This document shows, piece by piece, positions 8,521 to 24,784 of a DNA stretch of 64,000 bases. The stretch is from an uncultured bacterium (lineage in GTDB: Bacteria; Actinomycetota; Geothermincolia; Geothermincolales; Geothermincolaceae): positions 191,113 to 255,112 of the forward strand of contig CAVXXD010000005.1 of the NCBI GenBank assembly GCA_963765625.1. Reading direction: 5' to 3'. The translations under genes were made by a program, and so were the position numbers. A model generated the notes under the pieces. It saw only the letters and a program-made list of their open reading frames with translations, was not told the origin of the DNA and ran no database searches. How positions within the stretch are numbered: position 1 is the first letter of the stretch; every line of letters starts with the position of its first letter.

Positions 8521-8964
8521 TTACAGCTTTTTTCCCTGTAATATCGCCTCCAGTGCAAGCAGGTAGGAAAGGTGCCCGAAACCGCTGATCACGCCGTATG
8601 CCGCCGGGGATATCACCGACCTGCTCCGCCACTCCTCCCGGGAGAAGATGTTACTGAGGTGCACCTCCACCACCGGAACGGAGATAGCGCGCACCGCATC
8701 ATGCAGGGCATAGCTGTAATGGGTCAGGGCTCCGGGGTTCAGTATCACTCCCGCATAACCTTCCCGGGCTTCCTGCAGCCAGTCTACCAGGGTTCCTTCA
8801 TGATTACTCTGGCGGATGTCGATCTCGCATCCCAGTTCCTCTGCCCGGCGGAAAAGCCCTTCCTCCATCTCCACCCAGGAAACCAGGCCGTAAAGTTCCG
8901 GCTCCCGCTCTCCCAGCAGGTTGAGATTCGGGCCGTTCAACAGCATCACCTTCAATGAGCCCAC
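8521..8964 (-). CDS. aroQ: 3-dehydroquinate dehydratase, type II
   Basis: 147 aa; type II DHQase motifs (LLNGPNLNLLG, HLSNI). Confidence 0.9.
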   Translation of the reverse strand: MGSLKVMLLNGPNLNLLGEREPELYGLVSWVEMEEGLFRRAEELGCEIDIRQSNHEGTLVDWLQEAREGYAGVILNPGALTHYSYALHDAVRAISVPVVEVHLSNIFSREEWRSRSVISPAAYGVISGFGHLSYLLALEAILQGKKL

Positions 8965-10112
8965 TTCCCGTCACCCCTTTCCTCGATGATCCCGGCATCC
9001 TCCTCCAGGACCGTCCGGATGGCTGAGACCATCTCCCGGTCCGGGTTCCGGCATAAAGTCACAGGTTGGCCGATGTTCTCGAGCAGCACCAGGCGCAGTC
9101 CTCCTTCTTCCCGCTTCTTGTCGAAGGACATGCTTTTCACCATGTCCCCGGCAAGCCCTTCCGCGTCAGGCCCCTGTTGTATCAGGCCGGTCAGGCCCAG
9201 GCTTCTCAGCAATTCCATATGATTCAGATAAAGCCCTCTTCCGGCCAACTCGAGTGACTCCGACAGTCGCGCGGCCATGCGCATTCCCACCGCCACGGCT
9301 TCCCCGTGCAGGAAAGAAGAGAAGGCCGTGGCCGTTTCCAGCGCGTGGGCAAAGGTGTGCCCGTAGTTCAGCAGGATGCGGCGCCCACTCATATCTCGCT
9401 CGTCCTCCTCGACGAGCCTGGCTTTGATGGCGGCGCAAGCCGATATGGCCCTGACCAGCTCCACCTCCCGCCGATCCAGGAGCGCCGTCCCCTTCTCCTT
9501 CAGCCAGGCATGAAAGGCAGGGTCGAATACCATGGCATATTTCGCCACTTCTCCGAAGCCTGAGACATATTCCCGCTCCGGCAGGGTGGAAAGGAGGGCG
9601 GTGTCGCAAAAGACGCCGGCCGGCTGGTAAAAAAACCCCACCAGATTCTTCCCCTGAGGCATGTCCACTCCCACCTTACCCCCGATGCTTGAATCCACCA
9701 TGGCCATGAGAGTGGTCGGCACCTGGAAGTATCTGATCCCGCGCAGATAGGAAGCGGCAACGAATCCGCCCAGGTCGCCCGCTACTCCCCCGCCCCAGGT
9801 TATCAGGGCGTCGGAGCGTTCCACCCCCAGGCCCAGCATTTCACGGTATATACGGTTGACGGTGTTGAGGTTCTTGTGTTTTTCACCGGGCGGGAAAAGC
9901 ACCGGGTGGAGACTCCGCCCTCCCGCCCCCAGCCGTTCAGCCAGTTCGCTCCATTGACGGCGGTGCTTCTTCTCCAATGTAGTGTGGCTGATCAGAACGA
10001 CCTTCCGGCATCCGGCCAGGCCTGTCACCGAACCAGACAGGTGCTCCAGCATGCCCGAGCCGATGGTTACGTCGTACTCTCGTCCCGGCAGGTTTACCGC
10101 GATCTTCTCCAT
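8952..10112 (-). CDS. aroB: 3-dehydroquinate synthase
   Basis: 386 aa; DHQ synthase family, Gly-rich NAD-binding region. Confidence 0.9.
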   Translation of the reverse strand: MEKIAVNLPGREYDVTIGSGMLEHLSGSVTGLAGCRKVVLISHTTLEKKHRRQWSELAERLGAGGRSLHPVLFPPGEKHKNLNTVNRIYREMLGLGVERSDALITWGGGVAGDLGGFVAASYLRGIRYFQVPTTLMAMVDSSIGGKVGVDMPQGKNLVGFFYQPAGVFCDTALLSTLPEREYVSGFGEVAKYAMVFDPAFHAWLKEKGTALLDRREVELVRAISACAAIKARLVEEDERDMSGRRILLNYGHTFAHALETATAFSSFLHGEAVAVGMRMAARLSESLELAGRGLYLNHMELLRSLGLTGLIQQGPDAEGLAGDMVKSMSFDKKREEGGLRLVLLENIGQPVTLCRNPDREMVSAIRTVLEEDAGIIEERGDGKWAH

Positions 10113-10603
10113 ATTTCCTCGATCTCCGCCGCTACTTCCCCGGGTTCCCTGCCGTCCGTATCGATGGAATGGTCGGCTGTCTCCCGGTAATACGGTTCTC
10201 TCTCTTCGAGCATCTTCCTGATCTTGTCAAGCCGCCCGTCTCCCGCCAGTAAGGGGCGGGTATTGTCTTTTTCGAGCCGGCGCAGTATCGCCTCCGGTGA
10301 TGCCAGGAGATGGAACACTTCTCCCGAGTTTCGAAGGGCCACCCGGTTGCCGGCCCGCAGTACCGCTCCGCCTCCACAGGAGACGACTTTCGGAGCTTCT
10401 TCGATCAGGCCGTGGATGACCTCGCCCTCCTTATCCCGGAAGGTTTCTTCACCCAGGTCCCGGAATATGTCAGCCACCGTCATGCCCGTGTCTTCCTCCA
10501 CCCTGGAGTCCGTGTCCGCGAAAGGCATTCCCAGGCGGTCAGCCAGGTCCCTGCCCACGCTGCTCTTTCCGGTCCCCATGAAGCCTATGAGAATCAGGTG
10601 CAC
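10094..10603 (-). CDS. aroK: Shikimate kinase
   Basis: P-loop LILIGFMGTGKSSVGRDLA plus shikimate kinase core. The ORF-track 371-aa form runs out of frame through aroC and is rejected. GTG at 10603 gives ~170 aa just after the aroC stop. Confidence 0.8.
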   Translation of the reverse strand: MHLILIGFMGTGKSSVGRDLADRLGMPFADTDSRVEEDTGMTVADIFRDLGEETFRDKEGEVIHGLIEEAPKVVSCGGGAVLRAGNRVALRNSGEVFHLLASPEAILRRLEKDNTRPLLAGDGRLDKIRKMLEEREPYYRETADHSIDTDGREPGEVAAEIEEIWRRSR

Positions 10604-10611
10604 CCCGCGCC

Positions 10612-11772
10612 TCAGAAGGCTCTCAGTGTTTCCAGGTAATGGCGGTACCTGCTTTCCACTTCTTCCATGCAGTCGCCCCCGGTCTTCTCCAGCAAGGCGT
10701 CGGCCAGGACCCAGGCAACCATACTCTCGGCCACGACCCCCCCGGCAGGGACCGCGCAGACATCGGAGCGCTCGGGTAATGCCCCGGCTGCTTCTTTCGT
10801 CTCGATATCCACGGTAGGAGCGGGCTTGCCAAGGGTAGGTATGGGCTTCATGGCCGCCCGAACCCGTATAGTCTCGCCGTTGCTTACACCGCCCTCTATG
10901 CCGCCGCCGTGGTTTTCCAGGCGGTGAAACCCTTCGCCCCGGGTGTAAGCAATCAGGTCCAGAGAAGAGCTCCCTGGAGACAGCGCGAGAGTAAGGCCGT
11001 CTCCTATCCCTACTTCTTTCACGGACTGGATGGACAATAGCGCTTGCCCCATCAATCCGTCCAGCCGCCGGTCCCAGTGAACATGGCTCCCGAGGCCGGG
11101 GGGCACGCTGAATGCAAGCACCTCGAAAACACCGCCCAAAGTATCCCCCGCTTCGGCCGCCTGGTCGATACTCTTTATCATCTCCCGCGACGCACTCTCG
11201 TCCAGGCATCGCAGATCGTTTTCTTCCGCTTTAGCCAGGTCCTCCAGTCCGGGGGCCCGGTTCAGGTCAGCCGCAATGCCTCCGATGGACAGTACGTGTG
11301 AGCGTACCTCGATCCCTAGCCGGCGCAGGATGAGCCTGGCCACGCTGCCGGCGCATACTCTGCCCACGGTTTCCCTGGCCGAAGCTCTCTCCAGGATGTC
11401 CCGGATGTCCCTGGTGCCATATTTCTGTGCTCCCGCCAGGTCGGCATGTCCGGGCCGGGGAGCAGTGACTTTCTTCCCTGTCTTCCCCATCTCCCGGGGT
11501 TCTGCCCCCATCAGCTCGAGCCAGTTGGCGTGGTCCCGGTTCTCAACCCATAAAGTGATGGGGCTTCCCAGCGTGTTTCCGTGACGGACTCCGCTCAAAA
11601 TCTCCACCCGGTCCCCTTCAATGGCCATACGCTTGCCGCGTCCATAACCGCGCCGCCGGCGATCCAGTTCTTCATCGATGTACTCATGCCGCACCCCCAG
11701 GGATGCCGGGCAACCTTCAACGATGGTGCAGACGCCGCGTCCGTGCGACTCTCCCGCGTCAAGAAACCTCAC
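10612..11772 (-). CDS. aroC: Chorismate synthase
   Basis: 386 aa; MRFLDAGESHGRG N-terminus and chorismate synthase signatures. Confidence 0.92.
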   Translation of the reverse strand: MRFLDAGESHGRGVCTIVEGCPASLGVRHEYIDEELDRRRRGYGRGKRMAIEGDRVEILSGVRHGNTLGSPITLWVENRDHANWLELMGAEPREMGKTGKKVTAPRPGHADLAGAQKYGTRDIRDILERASARETVGRVCAGSVARLILRRLGIEVRSHVLSIGGIAADLNRAPGLEDLAKAEENDLRCLDESASREMIKSIDQAAEAGDTLGGVFEVLAFSVPPGLGSHVHWDRRLDGLMGQALLSIQSVKEVGIGDGLTLALSPGSSSLDLIAYTRGEGFHRLENHGGGIEGGVSNGETIRVRAAMKPIPTLGKPAPTVDIETKEAAGALPERSDVCAVPAGGVVAESMVAWVLADALLEKTGGDCMEEVESRYRHYLETLRAF

Positions 11773-11842
11773 TTAACAAGCTCCTCCAAAATAATAAGGC
11801 GGCATTACCGGTAATGCCGCCCCGCCTAGCGTTTTCCGGTTT

Positions 11843-12559
11843 TCAGATCCTTCTCAGCTGGCCTTTCTGCAGTTCGTAGGTCTCGTCTCCGCACATCAGC
11901 ACGAGAACGGTGCTGGACTTGAACTCTACGATCTTATAATTGTTGCCGAAGCTCACGCCCGCTTTTATGTTCTCGTAGCTCGTGTCCCCGACCTTTATCT
12001 TGGCGTATTTGATGCCGCGGCTCTCGAAGATGTCCTGAACCAGTATGACCTGCCCGCTGCTGACCTCCGCCGTCACCGGTACGGTCGAAGAAGGAGTGGT
12101 GGTTGGAGCTGTTGATGAACCTGCCGTTCCCTCGTCCAGATCACGGTTCAGTATCAAGCCTAGTTTTGAGTCCAGTGTCCCTTCGTTATCGACCAGCGCC
12201 CCCACATCACCCATCAGCGGCATGAAGGGGTCGTTCAACACCCACACGTCCGAATAAGGTATCTCTCCCGGATAGGACGACTCGACCAGCTGGATGTTGA
12301 AGTGCTGTTCGATCGTCCGGGATACTATGGCATCCGACTCCAGCGCTCCGGCATTCTGGCCGGGCGCTAAAGACTGCGCGAGCGACCTGTCGATCGTCGT
12401 GTTGTCATTGTCGCCGAAGCTGGTTGAAAGGAACAGGAGTGACGCTATCAGAGCAACGGCAAGACTGCCGAACAGCCTTATCCTTCTGTTGGCCTCGACC
12501 TCCATGGCTTCCTGCTTCTTTCTATTCGCGCTGTTTTCGGTTCTTTTCATCATATCCAC
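11843..12559 (-). CDS. Membrane-anchored hypothetical protein, possible PilP-like pilus assembly component
   Basis: 238 aa; one N-terminal TM helix, Ser/Thr/Pro linker, C-terminal beta-rich ~80 aa; directly follows pilM-pilN-pilO in what looks like the same operon. Confidence 0.35.
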   Translation of the reverse strand: MDMMKRTENSANRKKQEAMEVEANRRIRLFGSLAVALIASLLFLSTSFGDNDNTTIDRSLAQSLAPGQNAGALESDAIVSRTIEQHFNIQLVESSYPGEIPYSDVWVLNDPFMPLMGDVGALVDNEGTLDSKLGLILNRDLDEGTAGSSTAPTTTPSSTVPVTAEVSSGQVILVQDIFESRGIKYAKIKVGDTSYENIKAGVSFGNNYKIVEFKSSTVLVLMCGDETYELQKGQLRRI

Positions 12560-12574: not shown

Positions 12575-13138
12575 CTACTTGGTCAAGAGCAGCTCGACGC
12601 CGTTGGGCGTTGTAAAGAATATCTTGAAAGTAACGGTTATTTGCAGGTAGGGCAAGGTATCTTCGCCGGCCGAGACGGCCAGGATCACTGGCTTTATGGA
12701 GCGAGGCAGTTTTTCAACCTGGTTGAAAAACTCAACCATGTTGAAATAACGGCCGTTTAAAACCGTTGCGATCGAGGATACGTAGAACTTTCCCTGCTGT
12801 ACAGGCATTTCCGGCGTAAGGCTGAAGAAATCCAGCCCTGCTTTTTCCGCGGCGTAGTCCAGCTGCTGGACGACGTCGGCCAGGTCGACGTTCTCGGGTA
12901 TCTTGCCGTCCAGGGCGCTGATCTGGCGCGTGAACTGCTCAGGGTCCTTGTTGTATGCTTCCAGCTGGGCTTGACGGCCCTGTTCTTTGCTGTATTCGGA
13001 TTTTACGCTGCTGATCTGTCCATCAAGGTCGCTGACTTTGTTCTTTTCAGGCAATACGATAAACGCCACTCCGATCGCCAGAAGTATTATGGCTACGACT
13101 ACCACGATAATCAGGTAAAAGCGCGGATTGATTTTCAT
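12575..13138 (-). CDS. pilO: Type IV pilus assembly protein PilO
   Basis: 187 aa; N-terminal TM + coiled coil + PilO-like C-terminal domain; position after pilN. Confidence 0.7.
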   Translation of the reverse strand: MKINPRFYLIIVVVVAIILLAIGVAFIVLPEKNKVSDLDGQISSVKSEYSKEQGRQAQLEAYNKDPEQFTRQISALDGKIPENVDLADVVQQLDYAAEKAGLDFFSLTPEMPVQQGKFYVSSIATVLNGRYFNMVEFFNQVEKLPRSIKPVILAVSAGEDTLPYLQITVTFKIFFTTPNGVELLLTK

Positions 13139-13974
13139 TTCCCACTACCTCCGGTGGTGGTTCCCGTTTCTTCGGCATTCTTAGACTTGAGGTCCCATGG
13201 CGCCTTTTCAGTATTCCAGTAACCATCGATCTCGAAGGCGATGGCCCAGTCCTGATAAGATTCATCCACAACGGTCTGGGTGCCGTTTTCGTCCACTTCT
13301 TCGTGCTGCACCGTTATGGTCACCGGCTCCTGGGTGGAACTCACTATCCACAGGTTGCTCCATTCCTCCATGTTTTGCAGCCTGACATAGAATTCAGCTA
13401 CCTTTGGCTGGCCACGGAAATAGTAGTAGTAGGGATAGGCGTCAAGAAAGCCGTGAGCCTTGAAGTCGCTGGCCCGGGGCAGCCATGTTTGAATGCAGAG
13501 CCAGGCCGGAGCAGCGTATCCAGTCATGGTTATCGAGGGTGACGAACTAGTCTCGGCTCCTCCCTCGAGTGGCGTCGCATCGATATTCAGGCTGGTCAGC
13601 CAGATGGCCGGTGCGCGCGAATTGCTCGCGGTAGTCAAACCTTCAGGCACATAAAGTGCCAGGTCGTTCAGCATGCTCGCCCAGCCGACCCTGCCGACGT
13701 TACAGGCTGCGTAAAGATCCTGGATGCTCTGGAGTTCGGCAGCCTGCTCTTCATAGACCTGGAGCGGCTCCTCGACCTTTTTCTGAAGTTCCTGCAACTC
13801 GGCTTCCTGGTCCTTGAGATCTGCCTCCTTACTGGTAACCTGGTTATGGAAGAAGAGCCAGCCCACTCCCACCAGTACCACTACCGCCAGCAGCGATATA
13901 ACGATCCAGGGAATGAGGTTTACCCTTTCGGCCTTTCCCTTTATCTCGGGAGGAAGCAGGTTTATGCGCGTCAT
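13135..13974 (-). CDS. pilN: Type IV pilus assembly protein PilN (with C-terminal extension)
   Basis: 279 aa; conserved N-terminal INLLPPE motif, TM helix, coiled coil. Confidence 0.75.
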   Translation of the reverse strand: MTRINLLPPEIKGKAERVNLIPWIVISLLAVVVLVGVGWLFFHNQVTSKEADLKDQEAELQELQKKVEEPLQVYEEQAAELQSIQDLYAACNVGRVGWASMLNDLALYVPEGLTTASNSRAPAIWLTSLNIDATPLEGGAETSSSPSITMTGYAAPAWLCIQTWLPRASDFKAHGFLDAYPYYYYFRGQPKVAEFYVRLQNMEEWSNLWIVSSTQEPVTITVQHEEVDENGTQTVVDESYQDWAIAFEIDGYWNTEKAPWDLKSKNAEETGTTTGGSGK

Positions 13975-15044
13975 TATTCCATCACCTCTCTGAGGGCAAG
14001 GCCGATACAGACGGCAACTGAAGGTTCGATGTCGGCCAGCTCTTCAGCCGCGAAGGGAAGCTTGCCCATCTGGAGATTCTGGAAAGGTTTCCCCATCTCC
14101 ACCGGAATCCGCAGCCCGCGGTTCATCTCCTGAGAGAGGTTGAGGGTTTTTGACCCGCTTCCGGAGAGAATGACCTTCGAGAGGTTTCTCTCCTGGGTCT
14201 GCGCGACATAGTAATCGATGGATCGACGGACTTCACCGACGAAATTGAAGATCTCCTGCTGGAGTATCTTGTTCGCCTCTTCGTGGACCTGTTTGCCGGT
14301 CCTGATCTCTTCCGCTTCTCCTGCATCCATGTTCATGCGGTCCATGATGATGGAGGTAAAGTCGTTCCCTCCCCGCAGCAGGAAGCGCGCGAACCTGGGT
14401 ATCCGGTCCTTGAGAATGACTATATTGGTGATACCGGCTCCGATATTGACGATGCAGACGCTCTCTTCCTCCCCCGCCTCTTCCATCAGCTGCACCTCTC
14501 TCTTGATGAGGGAGCGGGGCAGGGCGAACGCCTTGAGGTCGATCGCCACCGGCACCAGGCCGGCGCTCTGCAGGACCCCGACGAAGCTCTGGATCATGTC
14601 CCGGTGGGCTGCCACCAGAAGCACCGTGAGCATCCGTTCTTCTTCGGCCGTCATGAACTCCTCGATGACTTCGAAATCAAGGACGGCATCCTCGGTGGGG
14701 ATGGGTATGAATTCCTGCACCTGGAAGCGGAGAGCCGAATCCAGCTCTTCCCTCTCCATGTACGGCAGTTCGATGGGGCGGACTATCACCTTCTGGTTGG
14801 CGATTCCCAGGATGACCTTTTTCCCTTTCAAGCCGGACCGGGTCCAGAGCTCCTTGAGCAGGTTGGAAAGGGACTCCGGGTCCTCGATCTCGCCGTCACG
14901 GATCACGCCTTCAGGGAGTTGGATGAACCCCAGGTTCGATAGAATGGCATCTCCCCGGTCGATCTCGACCTCCGAGACCTTGACCGAGCTATTGCTGATG
15001 TCCAGGCCAATTGCAGTCGTCTTCTTCTTTGGACTCATCATCAT
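13974..15044 (-). CDS. pilM: Type IV pilus assembly ATPase-like protein PilM (actin/FtsA fold)
   Basis: 356 aa; IGLDISNSSVKV N-terminus and actin-like ATPase fold motifs. Confidence 0.85.
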   Translation of the reverse strand: MMMSPKKKTTAIGLDISNSSVKVSEVEIDRGDAILSNLGFIQLPEGVIRDGEIEDPESLSNLLKELWTRSGLKGKKVILGIANQKVIVRPIELPYMEREELDSALRFQVQEFIPIPTEDAVLDFEVIEEFMTAEEERMLTVLLVAAHRDMIQSFVGVLQSAGLVPVAIDLKAFALPRSLIKREVQLMEEAGEEESVCIVNIGAGITNIVILKDRIPRFARFLLRGGNDFTSIIMDRMNMDAGEAEEIRTGKQVHEEANKILQQEIFNFVGEVRRSIDYYVAQTQERNLSKVILSGSGSKTLNLSQEMNRGLRIPVEMGKPFQNLQMGKLPFAAEELADIEPSVAVCIGLALREVME

Positions 15045-15062: not shown

Positions 15063-15242
15063 TCACGAACCCTTGGTGAGGTATTTATTGACATCGCTCT
15101 CTTTGATCCGGTAATTCTTGCCTACACGAATGGCCGGGATCTGGCCTCCCTTTACCAGGCGGTAGACCGTCATATTGGATACCCTTAGTATATCGGCCAC
15201 TTCGTTCACCGTCAGCAGTTTGTTGCTAATCTTTTCTCTCAT
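15063..15242 (-). CDS. Small helix-turn-helix DNA-binding protein, excisionase/MerR-like HTH_17 family (not in ORF track)
   Basis: 59 aa translated by hand: MREKISNKLLTVNEVADILRVSNMTVYRLVKGGQIPAIRVGKNYRIKESDVNKYLTKGS; GGAG SD 7 nt upstream; stop 18 nt before pilM. Confidence 0.7.
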   Translation of the reverse strand: MREKISNKLLTVNEVADILRVSNMTVYRLVKGGQIPAIRVGKNYRIKESDVNKYLTKGS

Positions 15243-15450: not shown

Positions 15451-15479
15451 ATTATAATTTAATATCAGTAGTTGTCAAT
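15451..15479 (-). promoter_or_regulatory. Sigma70-type promoter (TTGACA-17-TATAAT) for the HTH-pilMNO operon
   Basis: Minus-strand -35 TTGACA (plus coords 15474-15479), 17-nt spacer, perfect TATAAT (15451-15456), in an AT-rich island. Confidence 0.5.
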
Positions 15480-15490: not shown

Positions 15491-16270
15491 CTACCGCATC
15501 ATTGAGCGATATAGCTCGATTATCCACCCCCCCACAAATATCGATATCCAACTTCCTGCGATCAGATACGGTCCAAATGGTATCTTCGACTTCCACTCCT
15601 TTTTCCCTGTAAGAATTGGTGGGATTGACGCAATGCTTCCCAGAAGGAAACCGAGAAAGAGCGCGGGGATGACGTCCCAGCCCAGCACAACGCCTGAAAA
15701 TGCCATCAACTTGGCGTCACCCATGCCCATCCCTTTCGGATACAGCAGAGAGATCAGGCCCAGCGGCCCCCCGCCGATGAGCAGGCCGGCCCCCTGTTCC
15801 ACCAGGACCTGGCTGTCCCAACGGACCAGGGCGATCACTCCCACGTAGACCACGGCGATCAGAAGGGAAGGAAGGATGATGGCATTGGGGATTATCAGCT
15901 CCTTCAGGTCGATCATGCCGACCATCAGGGTCACCGTGACGAAAAAGAGATAGAGCGGCAGGAAGGCGTCCCATCCGAACCCGAAATGGGCGAAGACCGC
16001 CACGTACATGGCCGCGTTGGTGAACTCGACCAGGAGGTATACGGGGGAGATGCGGCAACCGCAACGGCGGCAGCGTCCGCGCAGTAACAGCCAGCTCAGC
16101 AGGGGTATATTGTCGTACCATTCGATGGGCGTGTCGCAACCCGGGCAGAACGACCTCGGCTTGACCACGGACAGGCCGCGAGGAACCCGGTAGATCACGA
16201 CATTGGCGAAACTGCCGATGGCCGAGCCCAGCAGGAACAGAACCACTGAAAAAAAGATAGCAGGTAACAT
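15491..16270 (-). CDS. pilD: Prepilin peptidase PilD (A24 family) with tetracysteine zinc motif
   Basis: CPGC...CRRCGC motif and 8 TM core. The ORF-track start 16348 (TTG) lies inside the pilA1 terminator hairpin, so the start is set at ATG 16270 (MLPAIFF...). TATAAT sits 9 nt upstream of that ATG, suggesting a leaderless mRNA. Confidence 0.85.
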   Translation of the reverse strand: MLPAIFFSVVLFLLGSAIGSFANVVIYRVPRGLSVVKPRSFCPGCDTPIEWYDNIPLLSWLLLRGRCRRCGCRISPVYLLVEFTNAAMYVAVFAHFGFGWDAFLPLYLFFVTVTLMVGMIDLKELIIPNAIILPSLLIAVVYVGVIALVRWDSQVLVEQGAGLLIGGGPLGLISLLYPKGMGMGDAKLMAFSGVVLGWDVIPALFLGFLLGSIASIPPILTGKKEWKSKIPFGPYLIAGSWISIFVGGWIIELYRSMMR

Positions 16271-16790: not shown

Positions 16791-17114
16791 TTAATCGCCA
16801 TAAGTGTGTCCCAGATCACAGACCGCGTACGGCGGAGTGCCGGTAACGATCTCATAGGTGCCGCCAGCGGGGCACTCCGGCCAGTCCTTGAGGAGCTCGG
16901 GCACGTAGTCACCGGAATCCAGTGAGTAATCGTCAGCCCCGGCACGGTACTGCATTACGCAGCCGTCGATGGTCCTCAGGTTGTCCTTGCAGGCGCCTTC
17001 CTCCGCATTGCTCTGCGCGCTGAAGAACACCGGCACGGCAATGGCTACCAGGATACCGATGATAAGAATAACGACCATCAACTCGATGAGGGTGAACCCT
17101 TCCTGCTTTTTCAT
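16791..17114 (-). CDS. pilA: Type IV major pilin PilA, copy 2
   Basis: 107 aa from ATG 17114 with the same GGAGGTG SD; the ORF-track upstream extension is ignored; 3 aa substitutions relative to copy 1 (V/M, A/G, V/I). Confidence 0.88.
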   Translation of the reverse strand: MKKQEGFTLIELMVVILIIGILVAIAVPVFFSAQSNAEEGACKDNLRTIDGCVMQYRAGADDYSLDSGDYVPELLKDWPECPAGGTYEIVTGTPPYAVCDLGHTYGD

Positions 17115-17233: not shown

Positions 17234-18460
17234 CTAGCTGCCGCCGGCGAACTGGCCGATGAGGGAGAAAATGGGCATGTAAAGGGAGATGACGATGGTT
17301 CCGACAACCCCTCCCAGGAGGACCATCATCAGGGGCTCCATCAGGGAGGTCAGAGACTCCACCGCTGCTTCGATCTCGGAGTCATAGAAGTCGGCGACCT
17401 TGTTGAGCATGGTATCCAACGCCCCGGTCTCTTCGCCGATGGCCAGCATCTGGGTGACCATGGGTGGGAACAGCGGGTTAGTTGCCAGCGGCTGTGCGAT
17501 GGACTCTCCCTCCTTGACGCCCATGCGAACGCTTTCGACGGCATCCGCGACCAGCCTGTTCCCGACGGTCTCGGAGGTGATCTCGAGGGCTTGCAGGATG
17601 GGTACGCCGGAAGAGACCAGGGTTCCCAGGGTACGGGAGAACCGGGACATGGCCATCTTGTGGAAGAGCGTGCCGAACACCGGCATTTTCAGCTTGAAAG
17701 CGTCCACTTTCCTTCTGCCGCTATCGGTTTTCTTCCATCTCCTGAAGAAATAGATGCTGAAGCCTACCACGAAGTAGAAGACCAGGCCGGCTAGGCTCTT
17801 GATGAAGTTGCTCAGGTTGATGATGAACTTGGTCAGTGCCGGCAGCGTCGCCCCCATCTGCTCGAACATGTTCACGAAGGTGGGGACCACCACTACCAGC
17901 ATGACTACCAGCAGATGCATGGAGATACCCAGCATGGCGATGGGGTAGGTCATGGCTGATTTTATTTTACGCCTGATGTTGTCTTCGTTCTCCAGGGTCA
18001 GGGCTACACGCAGCAGGACGTCGTCGAGCACGCCGCCGATCTCGCCGGCCTTGACCATGCTGGTATAAAGCTGTTTGAAGGTGTCGGGGTGCTTGCTCAT
18101 GGCCTCGGACAGGGAACGGCCCATCTCCACCTCGTGCTGGACATCCTGCACGACGCTGGCCAGTACCGGGCTGTCTGTCTGCTCGGCCAGAATGGCCAGG
18201 CATTTTACCAGCGGCAGGCCGGCATTGATCATGGTCGCGAACTGGCGGGTGAATACCGTTACGTCCTTGCCCTTGACCTTGGGCTTGAAGATGTGGAGTT
18301 CCTTCTTGCCCATGGCTGCCTTTTCCTTGTCTACCCCGATGACGAAGTAGCCCATCTGGCGCAGCCGCTGCGATACGTTGGCTTCGCTGTCCGCTTCCAG
18401 GGTGCCGGTTATGATCTTTCCCTGGCGGTCTCTCACCCTATAGGAATAAGTATCTGCCAT
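17234..18460 (-). CDS. pilC: Type IV pilus inner-membrane platform protein PilC (GspF family)
   Basis: 408 aa; two GspF-like repeats and TM segments. Confidence 0.9.
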   Translation of the reverse strand: MADTYSYRVRDRQGKIITGTLEADSEANVSQRLRQMGYFVIGVDKEKAAMGKKELHIFKPKVKGKDVTVFTRQFATMINAGLPLVKCLAILAEQTDSPVLASVVQDVQHEVEMGRSLSEAMSKHPDTFKQLYTSMVKAGEIGGVLDDVLLRVALTLENEDNIRRKIKSAMTYPIAMLGISMHLLVVMLVVVVPTFVNMFEQMGATLPALTKFIINLSNFIKSLAGLVFYFVVGFSIYFFRRWKKTDSGRRKVDAFKLKMPVFGTLFHKMAMSRFSRTLGTLVSSGVPILQALEITSETVGNRLVADAVESVRMGVKEGESIAQPLATNPLFPPMVTQMLAIGEETGALDTMLNKVADFYDSEIEAAVESLTSLMEPLMMVLLGGVVGTIVISLYMPIFSLIGQFAGGS

Positions 18461-18614: not shown

Positions 18615-19358
18615 CTAGTCACCTGCTTGATCTTCCTCCCCGGAAACAGGTTCAGCAATGGTTTTCCGCAATTCACTGATCCGGTCCTCCAGAAGATTGA
18701 TCTTGGTGACAACGAACTTCCTGGCGGCCTGGTCCAGCCCTTCACGCATCAAGGCCAAACGGTAGTAGTCCAGTTGCTCCCGCAGGGCAGCAATGGCTCC
18801 GGCCGGGTCTCCCAGGGCGTTGCTGGTCACGGCGATCCCGGCGGTCAGGTACATCATGTCCACGAATTCCAGCCGCTTGCCGATGGCTTCCCGGTAGGCC
18901 TCCCGGGCTTGTTGGTATTTTTCCTGCCTCATGTAGAGGTCGGCCAGGCTGGCGTAAAGATCGCCGTTGTCCGGGTTGTTGGCTATCCCCTCCAGGGTGA
19001 AATCTATGGCCTCCTGCTCGCTGCCGGCGTAGAAGATGGTCGCTCCGCCCACGTAATACGCGTCGATATAGTGGGGGTCGAGGTAGCTTATCAGCTTATA
19101 ATACGGGATCAGCTCGGATTCAGAGCTGAGGCTTTCATAATAGCCGTGATGGAGGCTTTCCGTCCTGATCCAGAGGACGTAGGCCAGGAACTGCCTGACA
19201 CCACCGAGAAAGTCCAGGTAGTTGACGCTGGCGGAAGCCCCCTCGCCGGCCCGGCTTTCCTCGCCGCCCAGGTCCGACCGCCCCAAAGCCACCTGTGCGA
19301 AAGAGCCCGCCAGGATAAGAGCGGCCAGGATGACGCAGAGAACAGCCCTCTTCCTCAA
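18615..19358 (-). CDS. Secreted TPR-repeat protein (PilG-like accessory partner of the ABC transporter?)
   Basis: 247 aa; signal peptide (MRKRAVLCVILAALILAGSFAQVALG), TPR-like Tyr/Ala-rich helical repeats; start overlaps the permease stop. Confidence 0.55.
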   Translation of the reverse strand: MRKRAVLCVILAALILAGSFAQVALGRSDLGGEESRAGEGASASVNYLDFLGGVRQFLAYVLWIRTESLHHGYYESLSSESELIPYYKLISYLDPHYIDAYYVGGATIFYAGSEQEAIDFTLEGIANNPDNGDLYASLADLYMRQEKYQQAREAYREAIGKRLEFVDMMYLTAGIAVTSNALGDPAGAIAALREQLDYYRLALMREGLDQAARKFVVTKINLLEDRISELRKTIAEPVSGEEDQAGD

Positions 19359-20140
19359 ATCTCCTTCCTCCGGAATATCTCTCCACCGATGAGGATGAAG
19401 ACGGTGGAGAAGACGGCTGCCAGGATGGCCAGCATGAGCATGTCCAGGGCGGTGACGGGGTAGGTCCTCTCCCCGTGCGCCACCGTCTCGTTTATGTTGA
19501 AGAAGCTCAGGTTGGGCAGGATGTAATAGAAGAGCCCGGCTATCCCCCGCAGCAGGAAGTTGTGGGCACCGTCGGCCATTATGTCGTGCAGGAACTCACC
19601 TTTCAGGTGGCAGACCACGTAGAAGGCGGTGGTCCCGAAGAAGGAGACCACCGGGCTGGCGAAGGTGGTCAGCATGAGGGTGAAGGCCGCCAGTATGGCC
19701 GACTCCATGTATATGGCCAGCACTGCTTTGTACAGCCCGGGGTTGAAGACGTTGAACTTGAGATAGATAAAAGCCACCGCCACCAGCCAGGAGAAGGCCA
19801 GGGTGACCGCCATCACCAGCATCACCCCGGTATAACGGCCAGTGTAATACGTCCAGCGGGAGATCGGCTTGGAGAGGATGTAGTAGACGGCCCGCCGCTC
19901 GACTTCCACGGAGATGGCCATTGCCGCCAGGACCACGGTCAGCACCAGGGACATCAGGGAGATGAGGCCGAGGAAGCCGTCGCGCATGAGGTCTATCTGC
20001 ACGCCCACCCGCGCGCTGGGCAGGACCGGCACCATCAGGACCAGTATCAGGGTAATGGCCACCAGCGCATAATAGAGCTTGCGGTGTACGGCATCTTCGA
20101 TGACGCTGCGCACGATGGCGGTGAAAGCCCGGAGCCTCAT
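19355..20140 (-). CDS. ABC-2 type transporter permease (PilI-like)
   Basis: 262 aa from ATG 20140 (MRLRAFTAIV...), ATGA overlap with the ATPase stop; 6 TM; the ORF-track 364-aa N-terminal extension is rejected. Confidence 0.7.
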   Translation of the reverse strand: MRLRAFTAIVRSVIEDAVHRKLYYALVAITLILVLMVPVLPSARVGVQIDLMRDGFLGLISLMSLVLTVVLAAMAISVEVERRAVYYILSKPISRWTYYTGRYTGVMLVMAVTLAFSWLVAVAFIYLKFNVFNPGLYKAVLAIYMESAILAAFTLMLTTFASPVVSFFGTTAFYVVCHLKGEFLHDIMADGAHNFLLRGIAGLFYYILPNLSFFNINETVAHGERTYPVTALDMLMLAILAAVFSTVFILIGGEIFRRKEI

Positions 20141-21066
20141 TCCCTTTCCCTCCTGCTGCTGACGTGCGCCAGAAAATACTCCTCCAGGGTGATCCTTCGA
20201 GGCTTGACCTCGAGGATGCGCGCCGGCTTCGTCGACAGTTCCCGCAGGAATAGATCGAGATTGGGGCGGGGCACGATGAACCCGGGAGCGCCTTCCGTCT
20301 TCCTGGCCCCCAGCAGCTCGAGCTTTTCTGCCTCCAGTTCTTCTTCTCCATCCAGGGTGACCTGATAAGTCTCCTCCCGGCCCAGCAGGTCGGATATGGA
20401 GCCCTGGGCCACCTCCCTGCCCCGGTCGATGATGCAGAGGTGGTCGCATATCTCTTCCACTTCGGAGAGCTGGTGGGAGCTTAAAAGAATGGTGGTCCCC
20501 TGCTCACTGGTATCCTGCAGGATCTTCCGGACCTCCATCTTTCCCAGGGGATCAAGCCCGGTGGAGGGTTCATCCAGGATCAGCAGCGAGGGCTGGTTTA
20601 ACAGCGCCTGGGCGATGCCCAGCCTCTGCAGCATACCTTTGGAGAAACGGCTGAGTGCCAGGTCGCGCTCCCTGGAAAGCCCTACTAGAGACAGTAGGTG
20701 GGAGACACGCACGTCAATCTCGGGATCCGGCATGTACATCAGCCTGCCCAGGTAGCGCAGGATACGGTTGGGCGTCAGGTAATAATAGAAATACGGCTGT
20801 TCCGGCAGGAACCCCATGCGCTGCCGCGCCCGGGGCTCGCGCCAGTCGTCCCCGAAGATGCGCACCTCCCCTTCGTCTGGAACGAGGAAGTCCATGATTA
20901 TCTTGAGGGTGGTGGTTTTACCCGCTCCGTTGGGGCCCAGCAAGCCCATCACCTTTCCGGCAGGCAGAGTGAAGCTCAGCCCGTTCAAGGCCTGACGGCG
21001 CTCCTTGTGAAAACCTATGCGATAGCTCTTGCCCAGGCTCTTGACGTCAAGTGCCACATCGGACAT
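20137..21066 (-). CDS. ABC transporter ATP-binding protein (PilH-like)
   Basis: 309 aa; Walker A GPNGAGKTT, ABC signature, Walker B ILDEP. Confidence 0.88.
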   Translation of the reverse strand: MSDVALDVKSLGKSYRIGFHKERRQALNGLSFTLPAGKVMGLLGPNGAGKTTTLKIIMDFLVPDEGEVRIFGDDWREPRARQRMGFLPEQPYFYYYLTPNRILRYLGRLMYMPDPEIDVRVSHLLSLVGLSRERDLALSRFSKGMLQRLGIAQALLNQPSLLILDEPSTGLDPLGKMEVRKILQDTSEQGTTILLSSHQLSEVEEICDHLCIIDRGREVAQGSISDLLGREETYQVTLDGEEELEAEKLELLGARKTEGAPGFIVPRPNLDLFLRELSTKPARILEVKPRRITLEEYFLAHVSSRRERE

Positions 21067-21083: not shown

Positions 21084-22208
21084 TCAGCCGATCAGACGTT
21101 GCATCTCGTCACGGTTGGCGCAGCGGGCCATGGCTACCTCGAAAGATACGATGCCGTTCTTGTAGAGAGCGGCGATAGAGTGGTCCATAGTCTGCATGCG
21201 ATATTGTCCGCCCGCCTGCATGGCTGAGTAGATCTGGTGGGTTTTGCCTTCCCGGATCATGTTGCGGATGGCCGAGGTGGCGATCATGATCTCCACCGCC
21301 GGAACCCGGCCCTTGCCGTCACGTGTAGGCAGGAGCTGCTGGGTGATGATGGCCTGCGTCGTGCCCGCGAGCTGGATGCGCACTTGCGCTTGCTGGTAGG
21401 TGGGGAAGACGTCGATGATGCGGTCGATGGTCTGGGGGGCATCCTGGGTATGCAGGGTGGCGAATACCAGGTGGCCGGTTTCCGCCGAGGTTAAAGCGGT
21501 GGATATGGTTTCCAGGTCTCGCATCTCACCCACCAGGATAACATCGGGGTCCTGGCGCAATACATACTTCAAGGCATTGCCGAAAGAATGGGTGTCCGCG
21601 CCGACTTCGCGCTGGTTGATGATGCAGCGTTTGTGAACGTGGAGGAACTCGATAGGGTCCTCGACGGTGATGATGTGGTCGTTGCGGGTCTCGTTGATCA
21701 GGTCGATAATGGCGGCCAGCGTGGTGGATTTGCCCTGGCCGGTGGGCCCCGTGACCAGGACGAAACCGCGTGGCAACTGGGTGAGGTCCTTGATTACCGG
21801 AGGCATGTTTAGCTCCTCCACCGTCTTGATGCGATAAGGGATGATGCGGAAGGCGGCGCCCAGGCTGTTTCTCTGGAAGTAGGCGTTGACCCTGAACCGG
21901 GCGCTGCCCGGCACCGAGTAGGAGAGGTCGTATTCCAGGTTGGCTTCCAGCTGCTCCCTCTGGCGGGCCGTGAGGATGCTGTAGATCATGTCCCGCGTGT
22001 CGTTGCCGGTAAGCCTGGGGTACTCCTCGATCCGCTGCAGTACGCCGTTGATGCGCATGACCGGTGGTGCTCCCACGGTTATGTGTAGGTCGGAAGCCCC
22101 ACGGACCAGGACTTCTTCCAGCATTTCGTTGATATCGATCTTCTTCTTGGTCGTGGTCAATTCAAAAACCTCCCTTATCCGGCAAGCCGCCTCGAAGACA
22201 TTCGACAA
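21084..22208 (-). CDS. pilT: Twitching motility / pilus retraction ATPase PilT
   Basis: 374 aa; ASDLHI, Walker A GPTGQGKSTT, PilT family motifs. Start could instead be the internal MLEEVL... Confidence 0.9.
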   Translation of the reverse strand: MSNVFEAACRIREVFELTTTKKKIDINEMLEEVLVRGASDLHITVGAPPVMRINGVLQRIEEYPRLTGNDTRDMIYSILTARQREQLEANLEYDLSYSVPGSARFRVNAYFQRNSLGAAFRIIPYRIKTVEELNMPPVIKDLTQLPRGFVLVTGPTGQGKSTTLAAIIDLINETRNDHIITVEDPIEFLHVHKRCIINQREVGADTHSFGNALKYVLRQDPDVILVGEMRDLETISTALTSAETGHLVFATLHTQDAPQTIDRIIDVFPTYQQAQVRIQLAGTTQAIITQQLLPTRDGKGRVPAVEIMIATSAIRNMIREGKTHQIYSAMQAGGQYRMQTMDHSIAALYKNGIVSFEVAMARCANRDEMQRLIG

Positions 22209-22251: not shown

Positions 22252-23910
22252 CTACATAACAACCCTCAACACTTCATCCAGTGAAGTCACGCCCTGCAGC
22301 ACCTTGGCAAAACCGTCCTCTCTCAGGGTTACCATTCCCTCGGCTTTCGCCAGTTTGGCGATCTCGATATGCGGAGCGTTCTTGGCCACCAGTTTCTCGA
22401 TCTCCTCGCTGACCCTCAATATCTCGTAGACTCCGACCCGCCCCTTGAACCCGGTATTGTTGCAGGCTGCGCAACCGACCGGTTTATAGAGCGTCATTTT
22501 TTCCTGTATGGGAAACCTGATCTCCTGGAGGTATTTCTCCTCCGGCTCGATGGGCTCCTTGCAGCGCTCGCATAACCTGCGGGTAAGACGCTGAGAGGTG
22601 ATGCAATCGATGGCTGAGGCGATGAGGAAAGGTTCGATGCCCATCTCCAGCAGGCGGGTCAGGGCGCTGGGGGCATCATTGGTGTGCAGGGTAGCCAGCA
22701 CCAGGTGCCCGGTGAGGGCCGACTCGATGGCGATCTGGGCCGATTCCTGGTCACGGATCTCACCAACCAGGATGATGTCGGGGTCACAGCGGAGGAAAGA
22801 GCGCAGGGCTCCCGCGAAGGTCAGCCCGGCCTGGTAATGCACCTGCACCTGGTTGATAAGGGGAAGCCGGTACTCCACCGGGTCCTCCACCGTCATGATG
22901 TTCTTGGCGATATCGTTCAGGACGTTAAGGGTGGCGTACAGGGTGGTGGTCTTGCCGCTGCCCGTAGGCCCGGTGACCATGATGGCGCCATAGGGCTTGG
23001 TAAAGCTTTCCTTGAAGTTGTCGAGAGATTCGGGCGTAAAGCCCAGGTCCGACAGGGTCAACAGCGCATTGCTCTTGTCCAGGATGCGCAGCACCACTTT
23101 CTCGCCGTGGATGGTGGGGAGAGACGCGACACGGATATCCACGGGCTTCCCCAGCACGTCCATGGCGGCCCTGCCGTCCTGGGGCAGTCGCTTCTCGGCG
23201 ATGTTCATGTCCGCCATGACCTTGATCCTGGCAACCACGCCCGGCTGGAGCTTCTTGGGAGAACGCCTGATCTGGTGGAGCACGCCGTCTATGCGGTAGC
23301 GGATACGTACGTCGTCCTCCATGGGCTCGATGTGGATGTCGCTGGCCCTTTCCCGAACGCCCTCGCTGATCAGCAGGTTCACGTACTTGACGATCGGGGC
23401 CTCAGCCGCCGCGTCGTCGCTCTCGTCGATATCTTCGATGTCGTCATCAAGCTCGCTCAGGTCGATGTTGGTATCGGTTCGGCAGAATCGATTGATGGCG
23501 CCGATGATGTCGTCCTTGGTGCTGACGGCAGGCTCGACTTCCAGGCCGGTCATGATACGTATGTCGTCCAGGGCAAAGACGTTGGTGGGGTCGGCCATGG
23601 CCACCAGCAGCTTGCCGTCCTCTATGGAGATGGGGATTATGTTGTATTTGCGGGCCGTCTCGGCGTCCACCAGGGACGTGGCGGCGATGTCCACCTGGTA
23701 ACTGCTGAGGTCGACGTACTTCATGCCGATCTGCTGTGCCAGGATGGCGGTGAGTGCCCCTTCGCTGACTATCTTCAGCTCTATGAGTACGCGGCCCAGA
23801 GACTTGCCGCTGGCTTGCTGCTTCTCCAGCGCTTCGGCCAGCTGGTCTTCGTTTATGATCTGGTTCTGAAGCAGGATCTGTCCGAGTTTGTCCTGTTTAG
23901 GCTTTTCCAT
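22252..23910 (-). CDS. pilB: Type IV pilus assembly ATPase PilB (GspE family, N-terminal GSPII domain)
   Basis: 552 aa; N-terminal GSPII-type domain, Walker A GPTGSGKTTT, tetracysteine motif. Confidence 0.92.
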   Translation of the reverse strand: MEKPKQDKLGQILLQNQIINEDQLAEALEKQQASGKSLGRVLIELKIVSEGALTAILAQQIGMKYVDLSSYQVDIAATSLVDAETARKYNIIPISIEDGKLLVAMADPTNVFALDDIRIMTGLEVEPAVSTKDDIIGAINRFCRTDTNIDLSELDDDIEDIDESDDAAAEAPIVKYVNLLISEGVRERASDIHIEPMEDDVRIRYRIDGVLHQIRRSPKKLQPGVVARIKVMADMNIAEKRLPQDGRAAMDVLGKPVDIRVASLPTIHGEKVVLRILDKSNALLTLSDLGFTPESLDNFKESFTKPYGAIMVTGPTGSGKTTTLYATLNVLNDIAKNIMTVEDPVEYRLPLINQVQVHYQAGLTFAGALRSFLRCDPDIILVGEIRDQESAQIAIESALTGHLVLATLHTNDAPSALTRLLEMGIEPFLIASAIDCITSQRLTRRLCERCKEPIEPEEKYLQEIRFPIQEKMTLYKPVGCAACNNTGFKGRVGVYEILRVSEEIEKLVAKNAPHIEIAKLAKAEGMVTLREDGFAKVLQGVTSLDEVLRVVM

Positions 23911-24784
23911 CCCGTCCTCCCGCGCACAACCTTCCGCTCATCAATTCCTCCTCGAGGGCACGACGCATCTTGGCCAGGGGCGGCTCTGTCCCCGTCCATA
24001 TGCGGAAAGATCCCGCCGCCTGGTACAGGAGCATGGGGCGGCCGTTCACGGCCATCGCCCCCCTCTTCTCGGCCTCCCGCAAGAAGGCCGAGCGGTGCGC
24101 CAGGTAGCCCAGGTCCAGTGCTACCTGCCCCGGAGTGAACATGCCGTAGTCGACGGGCAGTTCACCCGGTACGTCCCGATCAAGGGGAGTGGAGTTCACT
24201 ATACAGGAGCATTCCCGCAATACGCGAGCTCCAGCTTCCTCATATTCCTGGATGTATATTTCGTCAAAGATGCCTTTACTCTTTAAGATTCCTCGCAATT
24301 CCTCCGCCCTTTCCCTGCTGCGGTTGAAAATATGGAGCGAGTCGGCCCCCATTCGGGATAGCGCCAGGGCGGCCGCCCTGGCCGCTCCGCCCGCGCCGAT
24401 CAGGAACGCCGGCCCCGCCGGGTCGGCCCCTGCTTCCCGCAGAGAGCGCAGGAGGCCTTCGGCGTCGGTGTTGTAACCGATCATCATGTCCCCCTCGTAA
24501 CTGACGGTGTTCACTGCGCCCAGGACCAGGGCGTCATCTCTCACCTCGTCCACCAGCCCACAGGCTTCCACCTTATGGGGGATGGTTACGTTCAAGCCGC
24601 GGAAGCCGGAGGAGCGCAACCCCTCAAGCGCCGGCTTCAGACAACCCGGCTCCACCCTGAGGGGCAGGTAGGCCCAGTTCAGGCCGAGAGCCTCGAAGGC
24701 GGCATTGTGCATGGCGGGAGAAGGCGATCTGCCGATATCCCCGCCCACCAGGCCCGTCAGAACCGTCTGTCCGTCTATCCTCAT
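23897..24784 (-). CDS. aroE: Shikimate dehydrogenase
   Basis: ~295 aa from ATG 24784 (MRIDGQTVLTGLVGGDIGRSPSPAMHN...). The ORF-track 363-aa form overlaps the GTPase gene and is rejected. NADP-binding GAGGAARA. Confidence 0.8.
   Translation of the reverse strand: MRIDGQTVLTGLVGGDIGRSPSPAMHNAAFEALGLNWAYLPLRVEPGCLKPALEGLRSSGFRGLNVTIPHKVEACGLVDEVRDDALVLGAVNTVSYEGDMMIGYNTDAEGLLRSLREAGADPAGPAFLIGAGGAARAAALALSRMGADSLHIFNRSRERAEELRGILKSKGIFDEIYIQEYEEAGARVLRECSCIVNSTPLDRDVPGELPVDYGMFTPGQVALDLGYLAHRSAFLREAEKRGAMAVNGRPMLLYQAAGSFRIWTGTEPPLAKMRRALEEELMSGRLCAGGRDGKA

Follow-up and report, generated by a model that had tools for sequence, protein, structure and literature searches.

How did the genes of a pilus machine come to be interleaved with those of the shikimate pathway, and is the arrangement inherited or newly made? 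The question is raised by a 64,000-nt stretch of DNA (the window), in which the genes of a type IVa pilus (T4aP) lie between aroE and aroC-aroK-aroB-aroQ and resume beyond aroQ. An earlier note on this DNA had described a complete pilus locus without a PilQ secretin, nested inside the aro block of an Actinomycetota-type genome, and had suggested that this might be an ancestral state of which only relics survive elsewhere. We followed this up with profile searches (Pfam and NCBIfam) of the window's open reading frames (ORFs) and with a scan, anchored on PilD, that took one genome for each GTDB species and returned at least 80 loci, which we probed with window proteins (they are referred to below by L numbers). 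The reading that we consider probable is that the window carries a complete T4aP gene set of the kind that operates without an outer membrane, interleaved with aro genes and inherited vertically rather than recently inserted.

The organism itself is placed by its alanyl-tRNA synthetase, AlaS, whose best named matches are in Ca. Solincola (60-62%, with Ca. Solincola tengchongensis at 62%) and Geothermincolales (57%), with Coriobacteriia (51-53%) and Aquicultor (50%) as further neighbors; all named top matches are Actinomycetota. Between relA and the PATAN gene, Ca. Solincola tengchongensis (L089) has its genes in the identical order. Similarity and synteny thus agree with the attribution to an Actinomycetota-type genome, and on these markers the window organism is a member of that phylum, in or near the class Geothermincolia.

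The pilus genes and their identity

All pil and aro genes of the locus lie on the minus strand, which carries nearly all genes of the window, and they are taken here in their own 5' to 3' direction. The first, aroE (shikimate dehydrogenase, 23897-24784; Pfam Shikimate_dh_N, SDH_C, and Shikimate_DH), overlaps the start of pilB with its stop by 14 nt, and an aroE/pilB overlap is also present in L001, L090, and L092. The extension ATPase PilB (22252-23910) matches Pfam T2SSE at 466 bits together with MshEN; TIGR02538 is its best-scoring NCBIfam family, at 668 bits against a cutoff of 676 (7 below the equivalog cutoff), and the N-terminal MshEN motif, which binds cyclic di-GMP (c-di-GMP), scores 57 bits in NF053729 (cutoff 38). 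The retraction ATPase PilT (21084-22208) reaches 480 bits against the PilT/PilU family TIGR01420 (cutoff 319), and the motif AIRNMIREGK can be read in its sequence. A single platform protein, PilC (17234-18460), has 408 amino acids (aa) and two Pfam T2SSF domains, and scores 439 bits against the Thermus-type PilC of NCBIfam, under that model's cutoff.

Two major prepilin genes follow. The product of pilA copy 1 (16791-17114; Pfam N_methyl) begins MKKQEG/FTLIELMVV, with cleavage at the slash and the residues G-1, F+1, and E+5; copy 2 (16375-16698) is a tandem duplicate whose product differs at 4 residues. The pair forms a direct repeat with a 416-bp period and 93% nucleotide identity and encodes 107-aa T4a-type pilins, of which copy 2 is similar over its full length to Thermus PilA4 (6xxd, E ~1e-4). 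PilD, the prepilin peptidase/N-methyltransferase (15491-16270; A24_N_bact 115 bits, plus Peptidase_A24), has both catalytic aspartates and the four cysteines of the CxxC...CxxC motif, all invariant in the PilD alignment. Between pilD and pilM stands a 59-aa gene of the HTH_17/excisionase family, a candidate regulator (15063-15242; HTH_17 66.6 bits, TIGR01764 68 bits) that is also present in L083 and L001; it and a 238-aa gene after pilO (11843-12559) had been overlooked by the earlier note.

The alignment-complex genes pilM (13974-15044; Pfam PilM_2 195 bits, TIGR01175 221 bits against a cutoff of 133) and pilO (12575-13138; Pfam PilO 53.8 bits, cutoff 22) are recognized by profile. The intervening pilN (13135-13974) is assigned by its position and INLLP motif, having an N-terminus MTRINLLPPE and one transmembrane (TM) helix; no profile matches it above threshold, and a weak match to the portion of NF045709 that covers PilN (E 2.6e-8) is far below cutoff. 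After the 238-aa gene come aroC (chorismate synthase, 10612-11772; Chorismate_synt 370 bits), aroK (shikimate kinase, 10094-10603; SKI 166 bits), aroB (3-dehydroquinate synthase, 8952-10112; DHQ_synthase and DHQS_C), and aroQ (type II dehydroquinase, 8521-8964; DHquinase_II 187 bits), all by Pfam. The gene assignments that had been made by reading alone are therefore borne out throughout by Pfam or NCBIfam, with pilN the one case that depends on motif and position.

The pil genes are indeed found in the aroE-aroC interval, as had been claimed, but they are not confined to it, because four pilin-like genes lie beyond aroQ (2603-8269), so that aroCKBQ is itself enclosed by pil genes and the nesting is mutual. 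The first encodes a GspH/FimU-like minor pilin with the N-terminal sequence ESG/FTLVELIAY (7721-8269; Pfam GspH and N_methyl, NCBIfam GspH/ComGD-like). The second encodes a 936-aa pilin-like protein (4914-7724; QGG/FSIVEVLVAG) with an NCBIfam PilV match at its N-terminus (E 1.9e-5, below cutoff); with this PilV-like start and a large C-terminal region it is a candidate tip or adhesin subunit, and L001 and L083 have homologs at the corresponding position. A 220-aa pilin-like protein (4238-4900; EDA/FSIAELLVG) has a class III-like N-terminus and a weak prepilin N-terminal match (E 0.0066), and a 539-aa PilX/GspK-like protein (2603-4222), weakly assigned by faint PilX_N and GspK matches, position, and N-terminal shape, has a hydrophobic N-terminus without E+5. 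As regards the class III signal peptide (G/F...E5), N_methyl is matched by both PilA and the GspH-like protein, and the motif is readable in the 936-aa and 220-aa proteins.

With PilB, PilT, a single two-domain PilC, PilD with A24_N, PilM-N-O, and class III pilins all present, the gene set is, by its content, that of a T4aP with a retraction ATPase. We considered other filament systems as well. A Tad/Flp (type IVc) identity was rejected on account of the single PilC rather than TadB/TadC, the 107-aa T4a pilins, and the A24_N domain of PilD; a Com pseudopilus was rejected given PilT and PilMNO, with ComGA and ComGB models scoring far below those of PilB and PilC; and type II secretion was rejected on gene content.

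If the machine works as its parts suggest, PilD would cleave and methylate the two near-identical major prepilins and the four minor pilin-like proteins, and PilC and the c-di-GMP-binding ATPase PilB would assemble the fiber. Since PilT would retract it, the pilus should be able to pull, in twitching, adhesion, or DNA uptake. The alignment complex would consist of PilM-PilN-PilO with a membrane-anchored PilP-like protein, and the fiber would cross only the cell wall, because no secretin is encoded in the window.

The locus appears to comprise several transcription units rather than one operon, since a perfect sigma-70 consensus-like site (TTGACA-16-TATAAT, 15451-15478, minus strand) lies upstream of the HTH-pilMNOP genes and a terminator-like hairpin with a 12-bp stem and a T-rich tail (11796-11823, minus strand) separates the pilP-like gene from aroC, both found as pattern matches. 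Promoter-like sites, likewise by pattern, also precede pilC and the minor-pilin genes (a 10/12 match at 8452-8481).

A PilP-like protein without a secretin

What does the 238-aa gene after pilO encode? Its product had no match in Pfam, NCBIfam, or the sequences of the PDB, and phmmer against the PDB returned nothing relevant. Searched exhaustively, a set of 1.84 billion representatives yielded no more than 24 relatives at E <= 1e-3. In their alignment the DPF.PL motif is invariant and the C-terminal domain conserved; the window protein has a TM helix at residues ~27-48 and reads NDPFMPL at 109-115, with F and P invariant across the family. A single-sequence AlphaFold2 model had a predicted local distance difference test score (pLDDT) of 46, so the model built with the family alignment was used instead, and there residues ~168-238 reach pLDDT 94-98 and form an HR-type C-terminal beta domain. 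A first hhalign comparison, of 4 against 3 sequences, aligned the beta domains with a P of 0.056; a comparison with a PilP/HofP alignment brought the DPF motifs into register (probability 76%, E 2.3e-5, 21 columns). One member of the family alignment touches Pfam PilP at E 0.04, and the L009 homolog matches it at E 0.0017 and 18.8 bits, below the 25.6 cutoff. A hidden Markov model (HMM) of the family detects the post-pilO gene in L083, L001, L009 (1e-20), L025 (4.6e-6), and L035 (3.4e-5). Because the N-terminal anchor, the disordered DPF linker, the HR domain, and the post-pilO position all match PilP, we regard the protein, on this modeled structure, as PilP-like and a member of the PilP/GspC-HR/GspB domain family.

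The presence of such a protein makes the missing secretin conspicuous. That no PilQ is encoded had already been claimed, and no secretin domain was found among the ORFs tested in the 64 kb. In known systems the HR domain binds the N0 domain of the secretin (PMC10191384), and for monoderm T4aP the absence of PilP has been called "logical," there being no secretin there (PMC6916266). One could therefore suppose that the organism is a diderm, or that a secretin is encoded elsewhere, with the PilP-like protein coupling PilNO to the product of a displaced pilQ; the HR domain fits this, and the secretin negative covers a 64-kb window of the genome. Against it, none of the related aro-linked loci that we examined has a secretin either, the lineage is Actinomycetota, the gene at the PilP position in Kineococcus is followed by one for a CWB2 protein, and PilP is also required for the stability of PilN-PilO independently of the secretin (PMC6916266). 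We consider a diderm organism or a displaced pilQ very unlikely. A pilus of outer-membrane-less type that nonetheless retains a PilP-like protein contradicts the expectation that monoderm systems need no PilP, and would point to a secretin-independent role, either in stabilizing PilNO or in contacting a cell-wall partner.

The Kineococcus protein deserves a remark of its own. In Kineococcus vitellinus (L040, 14494-16119) the place that pilQ takes in diderms, between the PilP-position gene and aroK, is occupied by a gene for a secreted protein of 541 aa, which carries three CWB2 repeats of the cell-wall-binding type and is a possible wall-anchoring partner.

Nested loci and their decay across Actinomycetota

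Is the nesting particular to this organism? Among the matches listed, 25 loci bear an actinobacterial title and 8 of these were aro-linked; to them are added L001, L006, L083, L087, L094, L090, and L092. The core order of the nesting, complete or partial, is aroE-pilB...pilD-pilM...-aroC-aroK-aroB-aroQ-pepQ; L090 and L092 share its aroE-pilB junction. Two close relatives of the window (L001 and L083) have the whole locus, including the ABC/TPR genes, the HTH gene, the PilP-like gene, and the minor pilins after aroQ. Nesting is likewise found in an Actinomycetota metagenome-assembled genome (MAG; L009), in L087, L094, and L006, in Solirubrobacterales (L025, L035, L047, and L057), and in the cultured Kineococcus vitellinus (L040), while an Actinomycetes MAG (L019) has alaS-ruvX-mltG-aroE-pilB-T-C-A-D...M. 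In L019 and L094 the minor pilins are encoded between pilD and pilM, not after aroQ as in the window. In the Coriobacteriia/Anaerosomatales loci, anchored by AlaS (L090 and L092), the order is mltG-ABC ATPase-permease-TPR-like-HAD-aroE-pilB-Roadblock-PATAN-GTPase, so that a fourth class again shows the aroE/pilB junction, where the codons overlap, together with the two accessory modules.

One locus is a genuine relic. In an Actinomycetes MAG (L043), pilD and a 158-aa N-terminal stub of PilM are followed directly by aroC-aroKB-aroQ-pepQ; the 158-aa ORF matches the first ~100 residues of PilM at E 5e-7. In L094, whose PilD is 75% identical to that of L043, a pilin, three minor pilins, pilD, pilM, pilN, pilO, and one more gene precede aroC. 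Comparison of the two gene orders indicates deletional decay within one lineage. When the L043 relic PilD served as query, every relative retrieved was at least 71% identical to it and came from soil metagenomes. The proposal of an ancestral locus with relics elsewhere is thus largely supported by the same nesting in several actinobacterial classes and by this relic; the part that held that only relics survive elsewhere does not stand, since nested loci that are complete or nearly so are common. Literature on Rv2551c, cg1830, and SCO1497 contained no usable statement, Rv2551c appearing there solely as one of several listed membrane proteins, and our literature searches found no description of aro nesting in Actinomycetota.

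In two Solirubrobacteraceae loci (L035, 1426-2886; L057, 2472-4444) the space between aroE and pilT contains a fragmented pilB or none, and the remainder of the locus is retained, which is either an intermediate of decay or an assembly error.

Inheritance or recent insertion

These distributions bear on whether the pil genes are instead a horizontally acquired island, recently inserted into a pre-existing aroE...aroCKBQ block. Between 12 and 18 kb the GC content is 0.54-0.56 (mean of the window, 0.61), transfer of T4P systems is frequent (PMC6668835), and in Solincola, the closest relative with a name, pilD is found elsewhere, all of which would suit an island. At third codon positions, however, the GC content (GC3) of the pil genes (0.66-0.87) is that of the neighboring aro genes (0.70-0.75; flanks 0.72-0.89); the would-be insertion points, aroE/pilB and pilO-pilP/aroC, recur in at least four classes; and in a neighbor-joining tree of PilB, PilT, and PilC (1247 columns) the aro-linked systems group together, beside other actinobacterial T4aP and apart from Firmicutes. 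The survey of the window's ORFs and Pfam domains revealed no integrase, tRNA, repeat boundary, or mobile-element gene. Because of the GC3 values, the recurrence of both junctions, and the tree, a recent insertion of the pil genes looks unlikely, and the island as an account of the locus strikes us as highly improbable. Recent acquisition, which the earlier note had named as a finding that would overturn its proposal, leaves no sign in GC3 or in the PilB/T/C tree.

A T4aP set of this kind also agrees with what has been proposed for these systems more broadly: T4aP have been predicted for monoderm phyla, Actinobacteria among them, and the secretin is inferred to have been lost repeatedly at the origin of monoderm T4aP (Denise et al., PMC6668835). 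On this reading the arrangement aroE / pilB-T-ABC-C-A-D-M-N-O-P / aroC-K-B-Q / minor pilins / pepQ-efp would be older than the split of several actinobacterial classes and would have decayed to fragments in some lineages.

Several points weigh against it. Locus frequencies taken from the listed matches are not representative, and unlinked T4aP occur in Micromonosporaceae, Microbacteriaceae, Amycolatopsis, and Acidimicrobiaceae. One Actinomycetota MAG (L093) has no aroE after mltG, and the linkage is absent there; in Ca. Solincola, the nearest named relative, PilD is encoded elsewhere, beside glycosyltransferases. The PilB/T/C tree is a neighbor-joining tree with no support values. As to the completeness and type of the set, the PilN, 220-aa, and 539-aa assignments are mainly positional, the 238-aa protein has no sequence-profile match of its own, Pfam PilP (PF04351) included, and the secretin negative extends, as said, over the window.

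The Solincola-type peptidase has a setting of its own. In two Ca. Solincola-type MAGs (L081 and L085), PilD is encoded at a distance from any PilB or PilC; its neighbors are glycosyltransferases of the TMEM260_N and YfhO types, a methyltransferase, and a ComGC-like pilin, which may reflect a different, glycosylation-linked use of the peptidase.

Is the linkage older than the phylum?

The collinearity of the locus reaches further than Actinomycetota. Escherichia coli K-12 has hofM-N-O-P-Q-aroK-aroB on one strand, with which pilM-N-O-P(like)-aroC-K-B of the window is collinear. Deinococcus and Thermus may belong here too, with a pilMNO(P/W)Q that is presumably followed by aroC-aroK-aroB. Outside the phylum, aroE-pilD-aroC/aroK is found in Omnitrophica (L032), Verrucomicrobiota (L068), and an AT-rich bacterium (L063), with no other pil gene nearby. 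In Acinetobacter baylyi pilQ and aroK share an operon (PMC9596432), and the pilMNOPQ genes of Deinococcus are dr0770-0774 (PMC7314969). From the aroE-pilD-aroC/aroK arrangements outside the phylum and the pilMNOPQ-aroKB order of E. coli and Acinetobacter, the pil-aro linkage is, on gene order, probably older than Actinomycetota and not an actinobacterial peculiarity.

The comparison with the diderm pilMNOPQ-aroK-aroB loci of E. coli and Acinetobacter baylyi can be drawn more closely. Order and strand are alike, with pilM, pilN, pilO, and a PilP-type gene followed by shikimate kinase and dehydroquinate synthase; in contrast to the diderm loci, the window lacks pilQ and has aroC added before aroK and aroQ after aroB, its PilP-like protein is TM-anchored with no lipoprotein signal, and a terminator-like site precedes aroC. 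It is conceivable, although we put this forward tentatively and rather doubt it than not, that pilMNOP(like)-aroCKB is homologous by descent to diderm pilMNOPQ-aroKB, the secretin gene having been excised and PilP kept and re-used in a secretin-independent way.

An alternative is that pil-aro adjacency arose several times independently and is neither ancestral to Actinomycetota nor shared with pilMNOPQ-aroKB, for example because proximity to the essential and constitutively expressed aro genes shields a gene from being lost or silenced. The different placement of the minor pilins in the window and in L019 and L094 would accord with such repeated origins, as would the permuted ABC and Roadblock modules of Coriobacteriia, the occurrence of aroE-pilD alone in unrelated phyla, the many unlinked actinobacterial T4aP loci, and the terminator-like site that splits pilP from aroC and leaves no obvious co-transcription. 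We know of no functional reason for pil and aro genes to converge, which counts against it. Two independent junctions, moreover, recur together (aroE/pilB with overlapping codons and pilMNOP/aroC-K-B), and the order pilM-N-O-P-aro(C)KB is identical to that of E. coli hofMNOPQ-aroKB, with pilQ-aroK in Acinetobacter (PMC9596432) as a further instance. Repeated independent origin thus seems unlikely to us.

Probable accessory modules that travel with the pilus

Between pilT and pilC lie three genes of a transport module: a PilH-like ABC transporter ATPase (20137-21066; Pfam ABC_tran), a PilI-like ABC-2 type permease (19355-20140; Pfam ABC2_membrane_2/3, below cutoffs), whose gene overlaps each neighbor by 4 nt at its start and stop, and an exported TPR protein (18615-19358; Pfam TPR families), all on the minus strand. 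The ATPase and permease genes are embedded among the pil genes and conserved with them, together in L001, L083, L090, and L092. ABC modules that are 42-43% identical adjoin pil genes in Bdellovibrionales (L061 and L073) and Coriobacteriia (L090 and L092), the module is also found beside pilD in Bdellovibrionales, Acidobacteriota, and Aminicenantes loci, and a TPR homolog, 30-31% identical, has the same position in Coriobacteriia.

Upstream of aroE, a candidate regulatory module (24885-31104, minus strand; by Pfam) comprises a small Ras-like GTPase (24885-25418) with TPGQ in the G3 motif in place of DxxGQ, a PATAN/DUF4388 protein (25431-29828), and three Roadblock/LC7 proteins (29869-31104). 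The Roadblock-PATAN-GTPase genes directly follow pilB in Coriobacteriia, where the GTPase is 64-72% identical, which suggests by analogy that the module is an MglA/MglB-like regulator of the pilus. Since the ABC/TPR trio, which resembles PilGHI, the small HTH protein, and the MglA-like GTPase with its Roadblock and PATAN partners co-travel with pil genes in other lineages, they are likely accessory or regulatory parts of the machine.

The 1465-aa PATAN protein, which is very acidic, has in its C-terminal half a Pro/Ala/Val-rich repeat region (25854-26530) encoded by 81-bp (27-aa) tandem repeats that are 97% identical.

Comparison with known systems

Several described pili share parts of this content. 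The monoderm T4aP of Streptococcus sanguinis and Clostridium spp. (PMC6916266) are without PilP, whereas the window has a PilP/GspC-HR-type protein after pilO and, in addition, the ABC/TPR module, the HTH gene, the adjacent GTPase/Roadblock/PATAN module, and the aro interleaving. The T4aP locus of Myxococcus xanthus likewise has an ABC ATPase, an ABC-2 permease, and a third gene among its pil genes (PilGHI, PMC6060248), and its MglA/MglB pair is mirrored by the small Ras-like GTPase (TxxGQ) with Roadblock partners; the likeness is one of gene content, the third gene of the window encodes a TPR protein, and PilQ, Tgl, and TsaP are missing. The window GTPase also resembles the actinobacterial conservon protein CvnD (Pfam ATP_bind_1).

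Within the phylum, the type IV pili of Actinoplanes missouriensis zoospores (class Actinomycetes) have been studied experimentally, as cited in PMC11522434 (Kimura et al. 2019). Two Actinoplanes loci (L007 and L026) have pilB-pilT-pilC...pilD-pilM in the same order as the window, and their PilB/T/C fall next to the aro-linked clade, but they have no aro genes within 10 kb and no match to the PilP-like family HMM. According to reviews, the actinobacterial pili studied so far are Tad-type, with those of Actinoplanes zoospores excepted.

The surroundings of the locus

Beyond the locus the window continues with conserved housekeeping genes. On the minus strand, again 5' to 3', it begins pdxS-pdxT-yebC-ruvC-ruvA-ruvB-queA-tgt-yajC-secD-secF, then, past two acyl-CoA dehydrogenase genes on the plus strand, relA-dtd-MBL-hisS-aspS, a 1015-aa gene of unknown family, MgsA-NifU-DUF948-alaS-ruvX-mltG, and a 175-aa gene. 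There follow the small and large subunits of a [NiFe] hydrogenase, a ferredoxin, the three Roadblock genes, the 1465-aa PATAN/DUF4388 gene, and the small GTPase, and after these aroE-pilB-pilT-ABC ATPase-ABC-2 permease-TPR-pilC-pilA-pilA-pilD-HTH_17-pilM-pilN-pilO-(238 aa)-aroC-aroK-aroB-aroQ, the GspH-like, 936-aa, 220-aa, and 539-aa PilX-like pilin genes, and pepQ-efp-Asp23-nusB. Gene overlaps of 1-14 nt are frequent. The flanks are as had been claimed, with nusB-Asp23-efp-pepQ on one side and mltG-ruvX-alaS...pdxT-pdxS on the other, but aroE does not directly follow mltG: about 10 kb (24885-34436), with the [NiFe] hydrogenase, Roadblock, PATAN/DUF4388, and small Ras-like GTPase genes, separates them, a block common to Ca. 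Solincola (L089). These flanks may correspond, in reverse order, to Mycobacterium tuberculosis Rv2533c-Rv2606c, as the earlier note proposed.

Four further features were observed along these flanks. A 6S (SsrS) RNA at 41023-41211, one of the few plus-strand features, scores 81 bits (gathering score 46.4) and adjoins the gene of the 1015-aa protein; for that protein (41220-44267, minus strand), whose gene stands between those of aspS and MgsA, the sole family match is a faint beta-propeller repeat. The queA gene (58008-59038, minus strand) is seemingly split into two overlapping ORFs of 318 aa (model positions 2-295) and 105 aa (293-322), for which either a frameshift or an error in sequencing may be responsible. 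The two acyl-CoA dehydrogenase genes (50867-53250, plus strand) lie between relA and secF, and the minus-strand ORFs there are their shadows.

Implications

The T4aP is a known machine; what appear to be undescribed are its interleaving with aro genes, the PilP-like protein without a secretin, and the co-travelling ABC/TPR and GTPase/Roadblock/PATAN modules. In Actinomycetota T4aP have barely been studied experimentally, and a conserved genomic address between aroE and aroC would allow the presence, decay, and loss of the pilus to be traced across the phylum. The collinearity with pilMNOPQ-aroKB offers, in addition, a testable gene-order character for a diderm ancestry of monoderm phyla. If the two arrangements are indeed homologous by descent, then the linkage would predate the split of Actinomycetota and Proteobacteria, the locus would be a genomic fossil, and its gene order would be evidence for the loss of the outer membrane and secretin in the ancestry of a monoderm phylum, with a bearing on the debate between diderm-first and monoderm-first scenarios (PMC8871954).

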